Under the pieces are notes generated by a model that saw only the letters and a program-made list of their open reading frames with translations, was not told where the DNA came from and did not search any database. DNA of 15,304 nucleotides from a virus: the UHGV virus genome UHGV-0078760. One strand, given 5' to 3'. A program made the position numbers and the translations under genes. Positions 1,708 to 14,756 of this stretch are shown here, piece by piece; positions within the stretch are counted from its first letter, which is position 1, and each line of letters opens with the position of its first letter.

Positions 1708-2286
1708 TTAGCTGTTGCTGGTGGTTGGGATTAGTTTCTGCCAAATCGCTGAAACATATTTCGCCTGGTGGCGGGCATCAGCCAGTGCGTTATGTGCAAC
1801 CCCATCGAATGGCATATCACGCTTAGGATCGAAACCTACAACTCTGCCTAATGTGACTATGGTTCTTACGTCGTGATCATTCCAAAATTGCCAAGGGCAA
1901 ACCTGGCCGGCACGTTCATATGCTCCACGCAATATAACGTTGTCGAAAGTAGCTCCATTACCCCAAACTTTTAAATATTTCGGATTATCAGAATGCCGAT
2001 TAATGAAATGGCTCAGTTCAGATAGGGCAGACGATATTGGCATAGCATCATCAACACAGATTGCTGATCGTGCTTCTGGGCTTTGTCTTAACCACCACAG
2101 AATAGTGTCACCATCCGGCACAGCTCCCTGTTCCATAGCACTTTCAAGGTTAACGGCGGTGTAAAACTCCTGACCCAGTTCACCGCTTTGCGGATCGAAG
2201 AACACGGCACCAATGGAGACGATAGGGGCATTTGGTTTTTTGCCCATGGATTCAAGGTCGATCATTAAATTGTTCACGTTATACAT
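1708..2286 (-). CDS. DnaQ-like DEDDh 3'-5' exonuclease
   Basis: Exo motif I (MIDLESMG, D-x-E) and motif III (HNALADA) visible in translation. Start placed at ATG 2286 directly after AGGAGA and overlapping the upstream gene stop (ATGTATAA); the track's upstream extension lacks support. Confidence 0.8.
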   Translation of the reverse strand: MYNVNNLMIDLESMGKKPNAPIVSIGAVFFDPQSGELGQEFYTAVNLESAMEQGAVPDGDTILWWLRQSPEARSAICVDDAMPISSALSELSHFINRHSDNPKYLKVWGNGATFDNVILRGAYERAGQVCPWQFWNDHDVRTIVTLGRVVGFDPKRDMPFDGVAHNALADARHQAKYVSAIWQKLIPTTSNS

Positions 2287-2704
2287 TCTCCTGCTGCGTT
2301 GCTGCTTCGAAATGCTCGACACCTTTAGCCCATATAGCTTTGATGGTCGTCCAGGTGACAGGAACGGTAATTTCAAGCCTTCCGCTACCGTCACATGTTT
2401 CGCACTCATCTTCGCCAAAACACTCCGGGCAGTTTATAAACTTCGTTTCTGAAAACTCACCGGATAGCACGCCCTTAGCGCCGTTCTCAGCGGTTAGTTT
2501 CTTCTGGACCATCACATAACCATCTTGGGTTATTGGAAATTTGCCAGCCTTACGGCATTCCAGCTCATCCAGCAGCACCAGCACACGCTGCGCAAGCCAG
2601 CGCTTTTCCTCATCGCCATAGGAGTTGTCAGCTATCTCTTTGAGACGGCCAGTGCCAATATCACCACCATCAGCGCGATATGCCTGTTTGTTGAGTGCTG
2701 TCAT
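2279..2704 (-). CDS. Hypothetical phage protein with Cys-rich zinc-ribbon motif (CPEC...CETCDGSG, CxxCxGxG-like)
   Basis: 141-aa ORF; start ATG overlaps stop of upstream gene (ATGA at 2701-2704); zinc-binding-like CxxC pairs seen in translation. Confidence 0.6.
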   Translation of the reverse strand: MTALNKQAYRADGGDIGTGRLKEIADNSYGDEEKRWLAQRVLVLLDELECRKAGKFPITQDGYVMVQKKLTAENGAKGVLSGEFSETKFINCPECFGEDECETCDGSGRLEITVPVTWTTIKAIWAKGVEHFEAATQQENV

Positions 2705-2934
2705 TGGGCTGCCTCCTCGAATAAAACCTCTCCCTCAATGCCACCAATCTGATAAACGATCGAACCGTCTTCACGATATTCCATCGGAGCTGCACTCCAG
2801 CCTTCGCCGTTAGGTGCATCATCATCGCCGACCAGAACAAATCCGCCACTAACAACACTGGCAGGATATATTTCGCCCTCAGTCCAGTAGCCCTCTGTAT
2901 CTTTGAGACATTTGATAAAAAGCTGATTGCTCAT
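2701..2934 (-). CDS. Small strongly acidic hypothetical protein (77 aa; 15 Asp/Glu vs 3 Lys/Arg)
   Basis: ORF with ATGA overlaps at both ends (2931-2934 and 2701-2704), indicating translational coupling in the early-left operon; residue counts made directly from the translation. Confidence 0.55.
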   Translation of the reverse strand: MSNQLFIKCLKDTEGYWTEGEIYPASVVSGGFVLVGDDDAPNGEGWSAAPMEYREDGSIVYQIGGIEGEVLFEEAAQ

Positions 2935-3185
2935 AGCGCGGCTCCCTGTCTGGCTTTGTTCAATAGCTGGTTAAACATCATGGTTAGGCTGTTACTACAC
3001 CCAAACGGCATATCGTTAACACGGTAAGTAGGAATTCCCTTGCGAACACCAGACTTCACGATCCGGCCGGTGCCATAGAGTTGCGATAATGCGCCAGCGA
3101 CCGCGGGTGTCTTTTTGTTCATACCTTTGGCGATTTCACCGCTGGTGGTATTCGGATGAGCCTGGAGATATTCAAATACGGTCAT
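2931..3185 (-). CDS. Small basic hypothetical protein, possible winged-helix DNA-binding protein
   Basis: 84-aa ORF; ATG at 3185..3183 overlaps stop of the 54-aa ORF upstream (ATGA). The HTH assignment is a by-eye impression, not a verified domain hit. Confidence 0.5.
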   Translation of the reverse strand: MTVFEYLQAHPNTTSGEIAKGMNKKTPAVAGALSQLYGTGRIVKSGVRKGIPTYRVNDMPFGCSNSLTMMFNQLLNKARQGAAL

Positions 3186-3349
3186 GGCGTTTTACCTTTA
3201 CGTTCCTGTTCCAGTTGCACCAGAGACTCTTTTAATGCTGCGAACGTAGCGTCCAGTCTGGTGGCGACTTCGCGCATAAGCGGTGCATGTTTTGGTGGTA
3301 ATTCAGCAACGGAGGCAAAAGCCTTCGCTACGAGCTCTTTTACCTTCAT
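3182..3349 (-). CDS. Unlisted small ORF, 54 aa (MKVKELVAKAFASVAELPPKHAPLMREVATRLDATFAALKESLVQLEQERKGKTP)
   Basis: Manual minus-strand translation: ATG at 3349..3347 overlaps the TGA stop of the HD-hydrolase gene (ATGA), and its TGA stop (3184..3182) overlaps the ATG of the 84-aa gene (ATGA). Fills an otherwise unexplained 160-bp gap. No strong SD. Confidence 0.35.
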   Translation of the reverse strand: MKVKELVAKAFASVAELPPKHAPLMREVATRLDATFAALKESLVQLEQERKGKTP

Positions 3350-3885
3350 GCGGCGCATTGGCGCAGATCCATCAGTTCGTTAAAGCGATTCATGAACAGG
3401 CCATAGGCTTGACCAGGACGGAGAGGGATAACCTGAACGAGATCAGAGCAGGGAATACCTTCGAGAATTTCCCACTTCGAACCGTCATCGATTTCCAGAT
3501 CACGGCGCTCGGTGGCTAACATGGTGAGATCGGCATATTTCACGACGGCTGCTTGTTCAAGTGAGATACCGAATTTAAAGCGGATAAGACCATCAACATA
3601 AGTTTCCATGCGTTGGTAGTCTGGTAACAGGGCTTTGAGCGGGGCAGGAATATCCTGGCAATATGCCTCCGCAGCATCGTGCATTAGCGCTTCAAAGGCG
3701 AACTCTGGCGGCACAATCTGGCTTACAAGCACAGAGTGCTGGGCCACGCTGTAGAACTCTGGCAGATGCCCAGCGAATCGACAGATGTTGGAAAGAGCTG
3801 TCGCGATATCTTCAACATCGATATCGTCGATTGTGGCGGTCAGGTAGTTAAATTTTTTACCGGATAATGTCTGAATGTAGCTCAT
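3346..3885 (-). CDS. HD-domain metal-dependent phosphohydrolase (YfbR/YfdR-like 5'-deoxynucleotidase family)
   Basis: Translation shows HD-family signature segments (..VAQHSVLV.., ..LMHDAAEAYCQDIP..). Start placed at ATG 3885 (MSYIQ..) with GGAG 6 nt upstream, rather than the track's upstream start. Confidence 0.8.
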   Translation of the reverse strand: MSYIQTLSGKKFNYLTATIDDIDVEDIATALSNICRFAGHLPEFYSVAQHSVLVSQIVPPEFAFEALMHDAAEAYCQDIPAPLKALLPDYQRMETYVDGLIRFKFGISLEQAAVVKYADLTMLATERRDLEIDDGSKWEILEGIPCSDLVQVIPLRPGQAYGLFMNRFNELMDLRQCAA

Positions 3886-4013
3886 GGTTTTCTCCATATT
3901 GGCGCGCTGCACCGCGCAGATTTTGGTTGCACGAATCCCTCGCCGGGTGGCGATAATTAATGGAATTACGCTTCAATAAATCCCCGCGGCGCCGGGGATT
4001 TAATGCAGAGCAA

Positions 4014-4841
4014 TTAGGCTTTAAAGTTACCGATGAAAGTTTCCACTGATTCACCGTCGAACTTGCTGATCAGCAGATCGCGGAATTCATTGGCGATCTC
4101 TTCTTCCTGGGCTTCAAGTTGGACGATGCGCAGAACAAAGCAGGGTTCATCGCTGGTCAGCAGGCTGTTACGCAAGCTAAAACGTCGTTCGCCCAGACCT
4201 TCATACGGCACACATTTGAATTCAAACGCCACAGGCATTACGTCTTTGCTGCTTGCTTCAACGCTTTGCATCAGGGATTTTTTACCAGCGAAATCACTAG
4301 TTTCATGGTCCTGCTGGGTTGCTTGTTGAATGGTGATACGACGCACTGCCTGAGCCGCCAGGGAAATCTGCATCGTATTACCATCGGCATCAAACGCCAG
4401 CAGGTAATCACTCCAGTCTTCCAGCCATTCAGCAATTTGCTTTTGCTTCAGACGTTGACCATCGATCTGCAGTAACGCGCGGACCGGGGCGGTTTTCTTC
4501 AGGGTGATCGAAGCAACGTTATCGGCGTGACCGGGATTATCCAGGGTGCCGATGTTGAACACTGAACGAGCGGTCATGTTGTCAGCATCAATGAAGCAAC
4601 GGGCTGGATCGCTGGCGCTGGCGTAACCTATAGAATAACGTGCGAAATCTTCAATACTGGTTGTTGTCATTGCACCACGGAAGCGGAAACGCTCCAGAGA
4701 AAAGCGCTCAAGGCTTTCAACGCTAGTACCATCTGGCAGCAATGCGGTCGGGCAAGCCAGACCATGAATATCATCCAGGTGGTAGCCAGAAAGGACCAGG
4801 TCTTTTACCTGCTGAAATGTACCGCTGTCTAACTGAGACAT
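4014..4841 (-). CDS. Conserved prophage protein of unknown function (recalled as DUF2303 / YfdQ-like)
   Basis: 275-aa ORF, ATG start with AAGGA SD 7 nt upstream. Same size and neighbourhood as yfdQ next to an HD hydrolase in E. coli CPS-53-like prophages; family assignment is from memory and not searched. Confidence 0.65.
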   Translation of the reverse strand: MSQLDSGTFQQVKDLVLSGYHLDDIHGLACPTALLPDGTSVESLERFSLERFRFRGAMTTTSIEDFARYSIGYASASDPARCFIDADNMTARSVFNIGTLDNPGHADNVASITLKKTAPVRALLQIDGQRLKQKQIAEWLEDWSDYLLAFDADGNTMQISLAAQAVRRITIQQATQQDHETSDFAGKKSLMQSVEASSKDVMPVAFEFKCVPYEGLGERRFSLRNSLLTSDEPCFVLRIVQLEAQEEEIANEFRDLLISKFDGESVETFIGNFKA

Positions 4842-4897
4842 AGAAATTCCTTATTAACTGATGATCGAAGTGGTATCAGTGAGTTTGTTGTTGCGGA

Positions 4898-5269
4898 TCA
4901 CTGAGCCGCTTTAAGCTTTCCATCCACCGCGCCAGTGATCCCGAACAGCTGACCCTGATCTTCCTGCAGGATGGTGAGCTTCCCGCCTTTGTTGACCCAC
5001 ATCGGGGTTTCGGTTGTGTCCTCTTCGGAGGCTTTACCACGCGGTGTTGGGGTGCTGTAGTTCAGCTTGTGCTTGATCTTGACGCGCTTCTCTTCAACGG
5101 AATTACCCATGCGCTCAAAATCAAATGTGAGGACTACTTTGCCTTTGTTGCCGTTGTTCAGAACGCCAAGCGCGGTGGTATTAAGTGCTGCCGCGATTTT
5201 GTTCATGAACACGCCGGCATCCAGTTCGCCAAGGAAATCTGGCACTACGGTCATGCGGTCATTACTCAT
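4898..5269 (-). CDS. Hypothetical early-left prophage protein (123 aa from internal ATG); first gene downstream of the PL leader
   Basis: Track ORF begins with TTG at 5356; the ATG at 5269 (MSNDRMTVV...) has GAGG about 8 nt upstream and is preferred. Confidence 0.55.
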   Translation of the reverse strand: MSNDRMTVVPDFLGELDAGVFMNKIAAALNTTALGVLNNGNKGKVVLTFDFERMGNSVEEKRVKIKHKLNYSTPTPRGKASEEDTTETPMWVNKGGKLTILQEDQGQLFGITGAVDGKLKAAQ

Positions 5270-5776
5270 GGTTTTACCCTCGTTAAGGCGGCTGCAACCG
5301 CCGAACTTTCTCCATACACAACAGAGAAGGGCACCTGCATTTGTCGGCGACTGCAATCGCCATCCTCTTGCCCGGGGGGATTGGGTTATGAGCCCGTCGC
5401 CCGGTGATACCCTTTTCTGTTGCGCCCTGAAAAAGGCTGGCGGTTACCGGACAAACGTGAAAACACCGGGCCGCCAGAACAGGGAGTTACTTGTTATTGC
5501 TTTGGCCTGCTTTTAACCACATCAGGCGTGGTGGTAGGTATCTTCGGGCGGGGTGCTAAGGGGGTGATTAGCCCTTGCCCTTAACACTCCTGCTGGTTTT
5601 GGTATTCCTGGCTTGGGTATCGCCACCAGCTATAGGAATTTGACTACGAGTTGCGGTTAATCAGACCGCGCCTCTGTTACCCCTCCCGAAGACACCTGTC
5701 AGCGAATCATCCGGTTATTCATATGCCACCGGCGGCTACTTCGTGGGCGTCCTGCCTGTTCGCTGTTTGTTTATTT

Positions 5777-5828
5777 AGTGTAGGATAACTTACAAAGAAA
5801 GGTCAAGAGGAAATGTTGGATAACTTAC
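5777..5828 (-). promoter_or_regulatory. PL-like leftward early promoter with two operator-like inverted repeats (OL)
   Basis: On minus strand: -35 TTGACC (5801-5806) - 18 nt - -10 TACACT (5777-5782). Operator-like 14-mers GTAAGTTATCCTAC (5780-5793, overlapping spacer and -10) and GTAAGTTATCCAAC (5815-5828). Mirrors the PR arrangement. Confidence 0.5.
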
Positions 5829-5866: not shown

Positions 5867-6523
5867 TTATAAATCCATTATCACTTGTCTTACTAATCCG
5901 ACCAAACGGCAGTTGCCGTTTACCTCGAGCATCCTGTAGTTGGGATTGAGAGGTACAAGGTATTTAAGCGGACCATCAATGACGAATTTTTTTATAGTGG
6001 CTTCGTCACTTCCCATTAGCTGAGCAATGACAATTTTACCATTTGCTTGGCTGGCATCTCCAAAGTCAGGTTCTACGACGACGAGAGAGCCCTCCGGGAT
6101 GCTTGGTGCGCCATTTGGGTTAGTCATTGAGTCACCGCGGACTATTAGTGCAAAAGCGCTCTCTGAAACAGCTGCTGAAGTGTAAACCCAGTCTTGAATG
6201 TCTCGTTCCGTTATCGCACCGCTATTGGCAGTCCATTCCCCGGCTTGCACCCACGTTAAAACGGGAACTGATCTAATTCCGAATCTCTGCTCTGGGTTCA
6301 TTGTTGGCGGTTGTTGTTTCCCGTCATCCTTACCCTCCAGCAACCACTGCGGTGTCTTTTCAAGAGCAGCCGCAAGCGCCTGAAGGTTCTCACCGCCAGG
6401 TTTATAGTCACCAGATTCCCAGCCGGTGATCGTGACGCGGTTTACCCCGACAAGCTTTGCCAGGACGGATTGCGTCATCTTCAGCTCTTTTCGTCTGCTT
6501 CGGATTCGATCATTCATTTTCAT
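5867..6523 (-). CDS. cI: CI-like phage repressor (N-terminal HTH, C-terminal S24/LexA-like autopeptidase)
   Basis: N-terminal HTH segment (MTQSVLAKLVGVNRVTITGWESG); C-terminal S24 signature with GDSM serine motif and downstream lysine (..IVRGDSMTNP...KKF..). Start placed at ATG 6523 (alt 6517); the track's longer N-terminus would run into the operator region. Confidence 0.85.
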   Translation of the reverse strand: MKMNDRIRSRRKELKMTQSVLAKLVGVNRVTITGWESGDYKPGGENLQALAAALEKTPQWLLEGKDDGKQQPPTMNPEQRFGIRSVPVLTWVQAGEWTANSGAITERDIQDWVYTSAAVSESAFALIVRGDSMTNPNGAPSIPEGSLVVVEPDFGDASQANGKIVIAQLMGSDEATIKKFVIDGPLKYLVPLNPNYRMLEVNGNCRLVGLVRQVIMDL

Positions 6524-6588
6524 GTAGGCAATCCTACCATTTTCTAATGTAGGAGTGCTTGACCATTTTATGTAAGATATCCTACTAT
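6524..6588. promoter_or_regulatory. OR/PR region: rightward promoter PR with operator-like inverted repeats; candidate PRM on the opposite strand
   Basis: Plus strand: -35 TTGACC (6559-6564) - 18 nt - -10 TACTAT (6583-6588). Operator-like 14-mers GTAGGCAATCCTAC (6524-6537, abutting the cI ATG) and GTAAGATATCCTAC (6572-6585, over the -10). Weak minus-strand candidate: -35 TTACAT, -10 TACATT. Confidence 0.6.
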
Positions 6589-6622
6589 CTATGCACTGCA
6601 TGACCTAACTCCAGAGGGAAAA

Positions 6623-6820
6623 ATGAAAAAGAATGACGTTATCTCTTACTTCGGTGGCGTAGGGAAAACCGCCAAGGCGCTGAATATCTCCCACGCATCT
6701 GTATCGGGCTGGGATGAAGTTATCCCAAAGGGGAGGGCATTTGAGATCCAGGCGCTGACGAAAGGTGATTTGAAAGTTAACCAATCCCTTTATGAAAAGC
6801 GTAGTCATTCGGCTGCGTGA
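6623..6820 (+). CDS. cro: Cro-like small HTH regulator (YdaS-type Cro/C1 HTH)
   Basis: 65-aa ORF divergent from cI; GAGGG SD 5 nt upstream of ATG; HTH segment GGVGKTAKALNISHASVSGW; transcribed from the PR candidate. Confidence 0.8.
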   Translation: MKKNDVISYFGGVGKTAKALNISHASVSGWDEVIPKGRAFEIQALTKGDLKVNQSLYEKRSHSAA

Positions 6821-7767: not shown

Positions 7768-8614
7768 ATTAACCGGCTACGTATGGGATGGTTGCGCGGC
7801 GTCGGGCATGAAGTTGTCTAGTGTCGCGATCATGGCGCGCCTTGCTGATTTTAGCAGCGATGAGGGGGTGTGCTGGCCGTCTATTGAAACTATCGCTCGC
7901 CAGCTTGGCGCAGGGCCGAGCACTATCAGAACGGCAATCGCTAAGCTTGAAAAAGATGGCTGGCTCACGCGTACACAGCGCCGTAATGGTAACCGTAATG
8001 CTTCGAACGTTTACCGCCTGAATGTGGCGAAACTTCAGGCTGCCGCATTTTCTCAACTGTCAGATTCTGACACGTCAAAATCTGACGCATCAAATTTTGA
8101 CACCTCAAAAGCTGACCCGTCGAAATCTGGCAAAAATGGCGGTTTTGACCCGTCAGAATCTGGCGGGGATCCGTCAGTAAAATCAAAACAAGATCCACAA
8201 GTAACTTCAAAACCCTCTTGTCCGGTTGCGGCGCAACCAGACCCTGAAGTCGTGATTACTGATCAGGCAATTTTGGTTCTGACCCATTTGAACCAGATCA
8301 GCGGATCCCGGTATCAGAAATCAAAAACATCCCTGGAGAACATCCGTGCCCGACTGCGTGAGGGATACAGCGTTGCAGACCTGCAACTTGTTATCGACCT
8401 GAAGCATGAGCACTGGCACGAGAACGACGAGCAGTACCAGTACATGCGTCCGGAAACGCTGTTCGGCCCGAAGAAATTCGAGAGCTATCTGCAAAGCGCT
8501 ACCTGCTGGGAGCAGAAGGGACGGCCTAAACGGGCTGACTGGGGCGCGAAAAAGCGCGATGTGATGGCTTTTGGTCCGGTTGAAACAACGATTCCAGAGG
8601 GGTTCAGAGGATGA
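7757..8614 (+). CDS. Replication initiator protein (N-terminal winged-helix DNA-binding domain; C-terminal conserved phage replication domain); lambda O analogue
   Basis: 285 aa in the O position; low-complexity Ser/Asp/Lys-rich central linker encoded by DNA iterons; C-terminal segment (..ILVLTHLNQISGSRYQ...ETLFGPKKFESYL..) recalled as the Phg_2220_C-type domain of phage replication proteins. Confidence 0.8.
   Translation: MSTKLTGYVWDGCAASGMKLSSVAIMARLADFSSDEGVCWPSIETIARQLGAGPSTIRTAIAKLEKDGWLTRTQRRNGNRNASNVYRLNVAKLQAAAFSQLSDSDTSKSDASNFDTSKADPSKSGKNGGFDPSESGGDPSVKSKQDPQVTSKPSCPVAAQPDPEVVITDQAILVLTHLNQISGSRYQKSKTSLENIRARLREGYSVADLQLVIDLKHEHWHENDEQYQYMRPETLFGPKKFESYLQSATCWEQKGRPKRADWGAKKRDVMAFGPVETTIPEGFRG
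8066..8180. repeat. Candidate origin of replication: iterons of a 10-bp near-palindrome TGACnCnTCA at about 15-bp spacing inside the initiator gene, followed by an A-rich tract
   Basis: TGACACGTCA 8068-8077, TGACGCATCA 8083-8092, TGACACCTCA 8098-8107, TGACCCGTCG 8113-8122, TGACCCGTCA 8146-8155, plus degenerate copies; A-rich 8177-8215. Analogous to lambda ori inside gene O. Confidence 0.6.
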
Positions 8615-9930
8615 CGTTAAACAAATATTGCCAGGCGCTGGCGGCACTGCGCAGCAAACCAGCCCACGAACTGAAAGAGGTTGGCGATCAGTGGCGAACA
8701 CCGGATCTGCTTTTCTGGGGTATCAACGCGCTATTTGGTCCATTAGTTCTGGACTTGTTTGCTGACGACGACAACGCGAAGTGCCCGGCATGGTACACCG
8801 CCGAAGATAATGCACTGACACAGGACTGGTCTGAACGTCTGGCAGAACTGGGTGGTGCAGGTTATGGCAACCCACCGTATAGCCGTTCGCAGTACCACGA
8901 GAAACAGGCGATCACCGGCATGACGCACATCATGAACTACGCAGCAGCCCAGCGCGAAAAGGGCGGTCGCTATGTATTCCTGATAAAAGCTGCGCCGAGC
9001 GAAACGTGGTGGCCGGAAGATGCCGATCACATTGTATTCATCCGCGGGCGCATTGGGTTCGATCTGCCAGTGTGGTTTGTACCTGCTGACGAAAAACAAA
9101 AACCCACCAGCGCGTTTTTTGCCGGTGCCATAGCTGTATTCGATAAGTCATGGCGTGGCGAGCGTTTCAGCTATATCAACCGTACAGAACTGGAGGCAAA
9201 AGGGCGTGCGTTTATGGCTTTGGCACAATTTGCTGCCAGCAAACCTCAACCAGCAACGTCCACACCAACAGTAGCCGGTAAGCCAGAAACAGAGTTGCCA
9301 CTCACCCAGAAAGATATTTTTGATATCAGCGGTGTCGAAGCGTGGGCATGTGTTAGAGCTGCGTTCGGCGATAAAGAAGAATACACATTCAGTGAATCGA
9401 AGTTTGGGCATACCTGGGCGGCGGATTCTGTCGAAGCACCGGAATTCTCTCAGGTATCACCATTAACGATCGACAAAGCGAAGCTGCTTATTCGTGAGAG
9501 TATTTTGTTCGGTGTGGATGAGTGGCTGTTGTCGATTCAATTCGATGACGCTGCTGCGCGCCTGGATATGTCGGAACGTATTCGCACTGTTGCCCTTGAA
9601 GCATCCGGTGAATATGGCATGAACAGTGCTGATTTCATTGCAGCTATGGGAAGCCTGGATGTTTCCAGTTGGTCCAATATTCGCCACATCCGCATGCACA
9701 TCCGTGAGAAAGCTAAACCAGTGGCGGATCCGCTTCCCGAGTCCCGTATCTGGCCGTTGGAGGTTGGAATTGTATTCGACCAGGTTGATGGCGCTGACAT
9801 GCTGGATGAATCACAGCAGAACAAGCTGAAAGCCAATATCAATCAACTCTGGCTGGAGCGGACGGCCACCAGCGAAATCATTACTGCAGCTTCTGAACTT
9901 GTTCGCAGTATGAGGGGAGAGGCCGCGTGA
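8611..9930 (+). CDS. Phage Dam-like N6-adenine DNA methyltransferase (N-terminal about 190 aa with NPPY motif) fused to a C-terminal region of about 240 aa of unknown function
   Basis: ATG overlaps the initiator stop (ATGA). Translation shows WRTPDLLF...DLFADDDNA...GNPPYS, recalled as the phage Dam family pattern. The C-terminal half has no motif I recognise. Confidence 0.8.
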   Translation: MTLNKYCQALAALRSKPAHELKEVGDQWRTPDLLFWGINALFGPLVLDLFADDDNAKCPAWYTAEDNALTQDWSERLAELGGAGYGNPPYSRSQYHEKQAITGMTHIMNYAAAQREKGGRYVFLIKAAPSETWWPEDADHIVFIRGRIGFDLPVWFVPADEKQKPTSAFFAGAIAVFDKSWRGERFSYINRTELEAKGRAFMALAQFAASKPQPATSTPTVAGKPETELPLTQKDIFDISGVEAWACVRAAFGDKEEYTFSESKFGHTWAADSVEAPEFSQVSPLTIDKAKLLIRESILFGVDEWLLSIQFDDAAARLDMSERIRTVALEASGEYGMNSADFIAAMGSLDVSSWSNIRHIRMHIREKAKPVADPLPESRIWPLEVGIVFDQVDGADMLDESQQNKLKANINQLWLERTATSEIITAASELVRSMRGEAA

Positions 9931-13703: not shown

Positions 13704-14756
13704 ATGAAGAATACTGTAAAAATAAACAGTGTTGAGTTAATCAACGCTGATAGCCTGCATTACGTCGCCACCCTCCCGGATAACTCTATTGATCTGATAG
13801 TTACGGATCCGCCGTACTTCAAAGTGAAGCCCAACGGCTGGGACAACCAATGGAAGGGGGACGAGGACTACTTACGCTGGCTTGATAGCTGTCTGGCTGA
13901 GTATGCTCGCGTTCTTAAACCTGCTGGCAGCATCTACTTGTTTTGCGGTCACCGGCTGGCCTCAGACATAGAGATTATGATGCGTGCCCGGTTCAACGTT
14001 TTGAATCATATAATTTGGGCAAAACCATCTGGCCGCTGGAATGGCTGCAACAAAGAAAGCCTGCGTGCGTACTTTCCATCTACGGAACGGATTTTGTTTG
14101 CTGAGCACTATCTTGGGCCGTACACAGGTAAAGAGGACGTTTACGAAAGGAAAAGCACAGAACTAAAGCAGCACATTATGACGCCACTGATTGACTACTT
14201 CCGTAATGCCCGTGAATCACTGGGTGTCAGCTCGAAAGAAATAGCTGAGGCAACCGGAAAGAAAAACATGGCGTCACACTGGTTTGGTGCAAGCCAATGG
14301 CAACTACCAAATGAAGTGGACTATAGAAAATTGCAGGAACTGTTCACGCGGATCGCTATCGATAAGCACATTCAGCAGAAGCTTGAACATCCTCACCACC
14401 AGCTAGTGGCTACCTATCAGTCATTAAACCGCAAGTATTCAGAATTGCTGGAGGAATACAAAACCCTCCGGCGCTGCTTCTCTGTTTCCGCTCTTGTTCC
14501 GTATACCGACGTATGGACGCATAAGCCTGTTCAGTTTTATCCGGGCAAACATCCATGCGAAAACCCTGCCGATATGCTGAAACAGATCATTAGCGCCAGC
14601 AGCAGGCCGGGGGATATCGTTGCCGATTTCTTTATGGGCTCTGGTTCAACTGTGAAAGCAGCAATAGAACTTGGCCGTCGGGCGATCGGCGTAGAACTGG
14701 AAGCTGACAGATTTATTCAGACCACCGAAGAGGTGGAAAAACTGAGCAAAACATAA
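13704..14756 (+). CDS. Beta-class DNA methyltransferase (N6-adenine or N4-cytosine; DPPY motif IV preceding FxGxG motif I)
   Basis: Translation shows LIVTDPPYF near the N-terminus and FFMGSGST near the C-terminus (circularly permuted beta-class order) with a central variable region. No nuclease partner recognisable adjacent. Confidence 0.85.
   Translation: MKNTVKINSVELINADSLHYVATLPDNSIDLIVTDPPYFKVKPNGWDNQWKGDEDYLRWLDSCLAEYARVLKPAGSIYLFCGHRLASDIEIMMRARFNVLNHIIWAKPSGRWNGCNKESLRAYFPSTERILFAEHYLGPYTGKEDVYERKSTELKQHIMTPLIDYFRNARESLGVSSKEIAEATGKKNMASHWFGASQWQLPNEVDYRKLQELFTRIAIDKHIQQKLEHPHHQLVATYQSLNRKYSELLEEYKTLRRCFSVSALVPYTDVWTHKPVQFYPGKHPCENPADMLKQIISASSRPGDIVADFFMGSGSTVKAAIELGRRAIGVELEADRFIQTTEEVEKLSKT

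Follow-up and report, generated by a model that had tools for sequence, protein, structure and literature searches.

A strongly acidic 77-residue early phage protein with a predicted Gp54-like beta-barrel fold

We found that a 77-residue protein encoded in the early-left operon of a prophage belongs to a family, phrog_11067, whose strong negative charge is conserved position by position, and that its predicted structure is a small all-beta barrel that most resembles Gp54 of Escherichia phage Bas11. Its gene lies at 2701..2934 on the minus strand of the window, the whole 15,304-nucleotide stretch of virus genome UHGV-0078760 analysed here. New anti-defence factors, like the triggers that immune sensors recognise, come mainly from small phage proteins that are made early and are dispensable; Gp54 belongs to the few triggers whose structure has been solved. 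We consider the 77-residue protein a reasonable candidate for a blocker of a host or defence protein; that this blocking would serve anti-defence is what we infer from the context of the gene.

Results

The gene for the 77-residue protein (MSNQLFIKCLKDTEGYWTEGEIYPASVVSGGFVLVGDDDAPNGEGWSAAPMEYREDGSIVYQIGGIEGEVLFEEAAQ) has an ATG start, 77 codons and a stop, and a Shine-Dalgarno-like GGGAG lies 7 nt 5' of the ATG (2942..2946, minus strand; upstream sequence ..CAGGGAGCCGCGCT ATG). At 2931..2934 (minus strand) an ATGA joins its start to the stop of the upstream gene (2931..3185, minus strand), which encodes an 84-residue, basic, winged-helix-like protein of the MarR type (pI 10.1; phrog_1687). A second ATGA at 2701..2704 (minus strand) joins its stop to the start of a downstream ORF of 141 residues (2279..2704, minus strand). 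These 4-nt overlaps, evident from the sequence and the ORF coordinates, make translational coupling plausible at both ends, in agreement with a preliminary description that had placed the gene in a translationally coupled early-left operon. The same description had named an exonuclease and an HD hydrolase as operon companions, and both were borne out by Pfam and PHROG matches: an Rv2179c-like 3'-5' exonuclease domain is encoded at 1708..2418 (minus strand; Pfam E 5.9e-74), and an HD-type deoxyribonucleoside 5'-monophosphate phosphatase at 3346..3912 (minus strand; phrog_318, E 3e-96). As mechanically called, the exonuclease ORF has 236 residues from a TTG and overlaps the 141-residue ORF. Translation probably begins instead at the ATG at 2277, in line with the gene calls of locus L008 (189 aa, MYNVNN...), which leaves a 1-nt gap behind the stop of the upstream gene. 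The 141-residue ORF is absent from the L008 gene calls; it matches phrog_60, and its C-terminal CPECFGED...CETCDGSG is a DnaJ-like zinc motif of the CxxCxGxG type.

The leftward co-directional run comprises genes for a YfdP-like protein, a DUF2303 protein, the HD phosphatase, the 58-, 84-, 77- and 141-residue products, the exonuclease, an excisionase and an integrase. It is headed by a cI-type repressor gene (5867..6601), opposite a Cro-like gene (6623..6820). The consensus scan returned a sole sigma-70-like site upstream of the leftward operon, TTGACC-18-TACACT (5777..5806, minus strand), a weak candidate for a PL-type promoter, and the number of promoter and terminator sites found was no higher than the shuffled expectation. 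Rfam and tRNA scans of the window gave no matches, and the base composition of the locus was unremarkable.

The YfdP-like, DUF2303 (YfdQ-like) and HD phosphatase (YfdR-like) genes at 3346..5356 (minus strand) stand in the same order as yfdP-yfdQ-yfdR of the Escherichia coli cryptic prophage CPS-53. In CPS-53, YfdR was reported to bind DnaA, and overexpression of yfdQRST to inhibit replication initiation (PMC4776307). From this gene order and the reported effect on DnaA, the early-left operon of the window may target host replication. The same prophage also carries two further orphan DNA methyltransferases, one of 439 residues and the Dam family in the replication/nin region (8611..9930, plus strand) and one of 350 residues just before the lysis genes (13704..14756, plus strand), implying that it invests heavily in restriction evasion independently of the 77-residue protein.

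By direct count, the 77-residue protein contains 15 Asp and Glu residues, three Lys and Arg residues and no His (net charge -12, pI 4.05), which is exactly the 15 to 3, and the net charge of about -12, given in the preliminary description. Such acidity, -0.156 charge per residue, is matched by only 3 of the 1241 distinct non-family ORF products from related phage loci, and among the non-family products of up to 120 residues 0.6% reach this value. The acidity is therefore beyond chance in its genomic context. It is also a family trait: net charge ranges from -8 to -17 (mean -12.3) across 103 close clusters, and distant members with only 32-47% identity still carry -9 to -15. Of 41 sequences, at least 85% have Asp or Glu at each of the 15 acidic positions, and in a diverse alignment of 30 sequences 11 of these positions are acidic in at least 80%; the invariant residues of the family are D37, D38, C9, W17, Y23, W46 and F72. 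Taken together, the position-by-position conservation and the outlier status in context imply that selection maintains the negative charge at fixed positions and that it is no accident of composition. The median pairwise dN/dS of 0.088 (121 pairs) further revealed strong purifying selection on the gene. This selection, the 117 homologue clusters and the confident structural model described below establish that the ORF is a real gene.

The phrog_11067 HMM matched the 77-residue protein over its full length (E 1.8e-47, 160 bits, residues 1-77 on profile positions 1-77) and also matched the distant members P0124 to P0160. It was the sole family match of the protein; Pfam (E 0.1 or below), NCBIfam and PADLOC scans gave none. 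The 117 homologue clusters come from Salmonella, Klebsiella, Citrobacter, Enterobacter, Kluyvera and other genera and are all annotated 'hypothetical', and no experimental or curated annotation was present on any family member found. Searches of PDB sequences with the profile and with the single sequence returned noise only (E 0.3 or higher), and a broader-profile search gave nothing but further unannotated close relatives among the 120 matches listed. We searched 1.84 billion representative proteins exhaustively with the family HMM and obtained 47 matches, all short hypothetical proteins except for the 438-residue metagenomic protein P0144. This protein carries the N-terminal half of the domain five times in tandem (pattern Y-x-C-x-K-D..W-F-T-K-G..Y..LVDDxGxEW); its net charge is -50, and it also matches phrog_3523, phrog_10169 and phrog_4927; its tandem copies suggest that the motif is a reusable module in larger phage proteins. 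The giant repeat proteins P0150, P0156 and P0158 gave marginal matches in repetitive adhesin-like sequence and were discarded. Membership in DUF7244 (PF23896) was likewise rejected: six of the 30 members examined gave sub-threshold matches over the N-terminal 37 residues (best E 0.0021, 18.5 bits, against a gathering score of 27 bits), and the 77-residue protein itself gave none. Literature searches with the sequence motif, phrog_11067, PF25180 and 'Gp54-like' found nothing about the phrog_11067 family.

The AF2 model of the 77-residue protein has a pLDDT of 93 and six beta strands. Its predicted fold, a small all-beta barrel, is closest to Gp54 (PDB 9AXB; Pfam PF25180, 'Phage antiviral trigger protein Gp54'; Zhang et al., Nature 2024, PMC11578894), and shows the six-stranded beta-barrel and the long beta1-beta2 loop of that crystal structure. 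Gp54, a small protein that its phage can do without, engages a defence system: it triggers the bacterial immune sensor CapRelSJ46 by direct binding and activation, and close homologues with just three substitutions no longer activate it (PMC11578894). Its authors suspect an anti-defence factor and describe the fold as very rare (PMC11578894).

For a profile comparison, Gp54 was extracted from MZ501085 and its homologues were aligned. Against this alignment, hhalign gave the phrog_11067 family profile a Prob of 0.6% over 9 columns. Gp54 itself scored 116 bits against PF25180 (gathering score 27 bits); the 77-residue protein gave no match to PF25180 at E 0.1 or below, and neither did 30 family members at E 1 or below. 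In a Foldseek search of the PDB no match had an E below 0.7, and Gp54 was not recovered. From these results, the relationship between the two proteins is one at the fold level only. They also differ in charge, Gp54 being mildly acidic (net about -3) and the 77-residue protein at -12, and the phrog_11067 family has a 10-residue acidic insertion, GDDDxPxGEG, between strands 3 and 4. We thus regard the 77-residue protein, as modelled, as a distinct, strongly acidic variant of the Gp54-type barrel that by sequence falls outside PF25180. The analogy says little about function, given the mild acidity of Gp54 and its lack of a known native role.

A Foldseek search of BFVD returned many small uncharacterised proteins of T1-like (Drexlerviridae) phages (TM 0.6-0.73), headed by an 81-residue protein of Enterobacter phage F20 (TM 0.72; phrog_10112; L091:45824-46069, minus strand). 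With hhalign this protein aligned to the family profile at Prob 72% (E 3.4e-5, 56 columns). The top BFVD rank and the profile alignment make it a probable remote relative. It is acidic (net -8) and sits among small early genes, and the phrog_10112 protein occurs in 333 phage records, mostly of Klebsiella Webervirus. These data lend moderate support to the view that phrog_10112 is probably a remote branch of a phrog_11067 superfamily in virulent T1-like phages. The F20 protein did not provide a bridge to Gp54 (hhalign against the Gp54 alignment, Prob 0.4%), and as PHROG labels both phrog_11067 and phrog_10112 'unknown function', membership in either gives no mechanism.

By blastn, the window matches a prophage in GCA_044042415.1 at 99.99% identity. 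Comparing other loci with the window by blastn, we delimited a single-gene mosaic module at 2682..2945. In locus L011 this segment is the sole DNA around the gene in common with the window (95.8% identity). Homology to the window stops at 2682, 19 nt beyond the stop codon, in three sister prophages that encode an identical protein (L007, L009 and L010). The next gene in these three loci encodes an N6/N4 DNA methyltransferase that has only its first eight codons (MTALNKQA) in common with the 141-residue ORF, indicating a recombination joint just inside the gene. The gene occupies the early-left region here and in Salmonella prophages and the nin-like region in Klebsiella prophages; in most of the 80 viral loci retrieved, DnaC-like and ParB-like genes precede it within a region of the nin type. 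More distant homologues, in the virulent-type Nonanavirus and Carvajevirus phages, stand first in a string of small early genes.

Neighbourhood clustering of 84 loci found no fixed partner gene but a mosaic neighbourhood, and the 84-residue winged-helix gene is the -1 neighbour in only about 5 of the 84. A DNA methyltransferase cluster lies no more than three genes away in roughly a third of these loci; as neighbours we counted 18 C5 methyltransferases, 9 small SAM methyltransferases, 4 N6/N4 methyltransferases and 16 dATP/dGTP pyrophosphohydrolases. The methyltransferase association may merely mirror the general content of phage early regions. In E. coli the gene occurs in only 1 of 5426 complete genomes. 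The related prophage of E. coli Nissle 1917, the closest E. coli relative, has an unrelated 115-residue hypothetical gene in the same slot (L001, 4677..5024), after conserved 58- and 84-residue genes, which marks the slot as an exchange hotspot for small accessory genes. The single-gene sharing in L011, the varied neighbours and the slot exchange together indicate that the 77-residue gene behaves as an autonomous, horizontally shuffled accessory cassette that has no obligate partner.

Discussion

The reading that we tentatively favour, while placing it at somewhat less than even confidence, is that the 77-residue protein works alone and by binding rather than catalysis, docking its conserved acidic and aromatic loops onto a basic surface of some host or defence protein. 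A soluble, strongly acidic six-stranded barrel with a Gp54-like fold would be expressed with the early-left operon as the prophage enters lytic growth and would exert no enzymatic activity, instead binding a host or host-defence protein one to one. Its interface would probably be formed by the beta1-beta2 loop D12-T-E-G-Y-W17-T-E-G-E21 together with the beta3-beta4 loop G-D37-D38-D39 and the following W46. Occupying a basic surface of the target, quite possibly one that binds nucleic acid, would neutralise it, with an anti-defence or host-takeover effect. This reading fits the conserved charge, the outlier status in context, the purifying selection, the lack of a catalytic or virion family, the mobility of the gene, its methyltransferase neighbours and the precedent of CarS discussed below. 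A fold of a known enzymatic or structural family, which the preliminary description had held would tell against its proposal, is not what we found, as neither an enzymatic nor a virion family was matched in Pfam, PHROG, NCBIfam or PADLOC.

Many strongly acidic small phage proteins occupy nucleic-acid-binding sites. That they do so, and that CarS shows a beta-barrel to be capable of it, makes broad DNA mimicry, in the sense of occupying a nucleic-acid-binding site, plausible within the binder reading. The CarS antirepressor of Myxococcus xanthus uses an SH3-topology scaffold that imitates operator DNA to sequester a DNA-recognition helix (PMC2926617). As modelled, the 77-residue protein may share with CarS a small, highly acidic beta-barrel of SH3-like topology, which in CarS is of the five-stranded type with an acidic face that binds the recognition helix.

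This precedent for an acidic SH3-like fold (PMC2926617) also speaks for a regulatory rather than defence-directed alternative, in which the protein would act in the manner of CarS by sequestering the surface with which a DNA-binding protein, of phage or host origin, recognises its target. Possible targets would include the upstream 84-residue winged-helix protein, a nucleoid protein, DnaA or RecBCD-type recombination functions. The ATGA coupling of the 77-residue gene to the gene for this winged-helix protein of pI 10.1 is consistent with such a role, as is the presence in the operon of YfdP-, YfdQ- and YfdR-like genes, whose E. coli counterparts were reported to act on DnaA and replication initiation (PMC4776307). 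However, the basic winged-helix protein is not a constant partner of the family, and we judge this alternative rather improbable.

A role as a DNA-mimic anti-restriction protein of the classical Ocr or ArdA kind is distinctly unlikely; here the carboxylates would stand in for the phosphates of the DNA backbone, and the protein would block the DNA-binding groove of type I restriction-modification or BREX enzymes. Like Ocr (T7 gp0.3) and ArdA, the 77-residue protein is a small, early product of a phage or mobile genetic element with a large excess of Asp and Glu, and the high net negative charge expected of such proteins is present here and conserved throughout the family. The context would also be that expected for restriction evasion: in sister prophages the gene is translationally coupled to one for an N6/N4 DNA methyltransferase, and methyltransferase genes are often found no more than three genes away, although such recurrent neighbours are suggestive at most of an anti-restriction role. 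This role is weakened by the absence of any similarity in sequence or fold and by the small, compact size of the protein. Ocr is helical and ArdA elongated, and instead of an elongated helical or multi-domain fold with B-DNA-like spacing of carboxylates, the predicted structure is an all-beta barrel. We also observed no Ocr or ArdA match in Pfam, NCBIfam or PADLOC, in accordance with the preliminary description, which had seen no sequence similarity to either protein. Its proposal of a DNA mimic or anti-defence factor thus survives in part. The anti-defence component is favoured by a conserved, positionally fixed charge, by the presence of the gene as an accessory cassette in hypervariable early parts of the genomes of several phage types that are unrelated to one another, frequently close to orphan DNA methyltransferases, and by a closest structure, Gp54, that engages defence; DNA mimicry, with an all-beta barrel predicted and no sequence link to Ocr or ArdA, is not supported by these results.

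A divalent-cation-binding or passive acidic protein, such as a Ca2+/Mg2+ buffer, a chaperone-like protein or an assembly factor, with the GDDD loop as a metal site, is very unlikely. D37 and D38 are indeed invariant in the G-D-D-D-x-P loop, and the family profile gives weak repeat matches to the large Calx-beta/VCBS-like proteins P0156 and P0158. However, these matches, at E 4e-4 to 6e-4, are marginal and fall within strongly repetitive sequence, the Pfam scan matched no EF-hand or other metal-binding family, and the early accessory position and horizontal mobility of the gene better suit a host-interaction factor than an assembly factor. Finally, we see next to no chance that the ORF is spurious or the decaying, functionless remnant of a gene, for which its small size and want of annotation speak and nothing else, and which is refuted by the median dN/dS of 0.088, full-length homologues in more than 100 clusters from many genera, the Shine-Dalgarno sequence with an ATGA overlap at either end, and the confident AF2 fold.

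The binding of a host or defence protein by conserved acidic and aromatic loops thus remains our preferred reading. On a broader and more speculative view, which we hold to be unlikely, phrog_11067, phrog_10112 and Gp54 would form a widespread, unrecognised superfamily of six-stranded beta-barrel phage 'decoy' proteins. The acidic branch would then be a new, non-helical nucleic-acid mimic with an SH3-like barrel that disables a host DNA-targeting defence (restriction-modification, BREX or RecBCD-type) or another DNA-binding host protein, and could itself trigger sensors such as CapRel or PARIS. What the present analysis adds is a second family with the same predicted fold as Gp54, much more acidic and far more widespread, found in temperate lambdoid prophages of Salmonella, Klebsiella, Citrobacter and Enterobacter and in the virulent phages Nonanavirus, Carvajevirus and, probably, Webervirus. 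If no phenotype emerges, the 77-residue protein would be one of many uncharacterised phage accessory proteins. The broad distribution of its family offers a comparative handle on the purpose of the fold, and the protein is a compact candidate for screens of both defence inhibition and defence triggering in clinically relevant Enterobacteriaceae.
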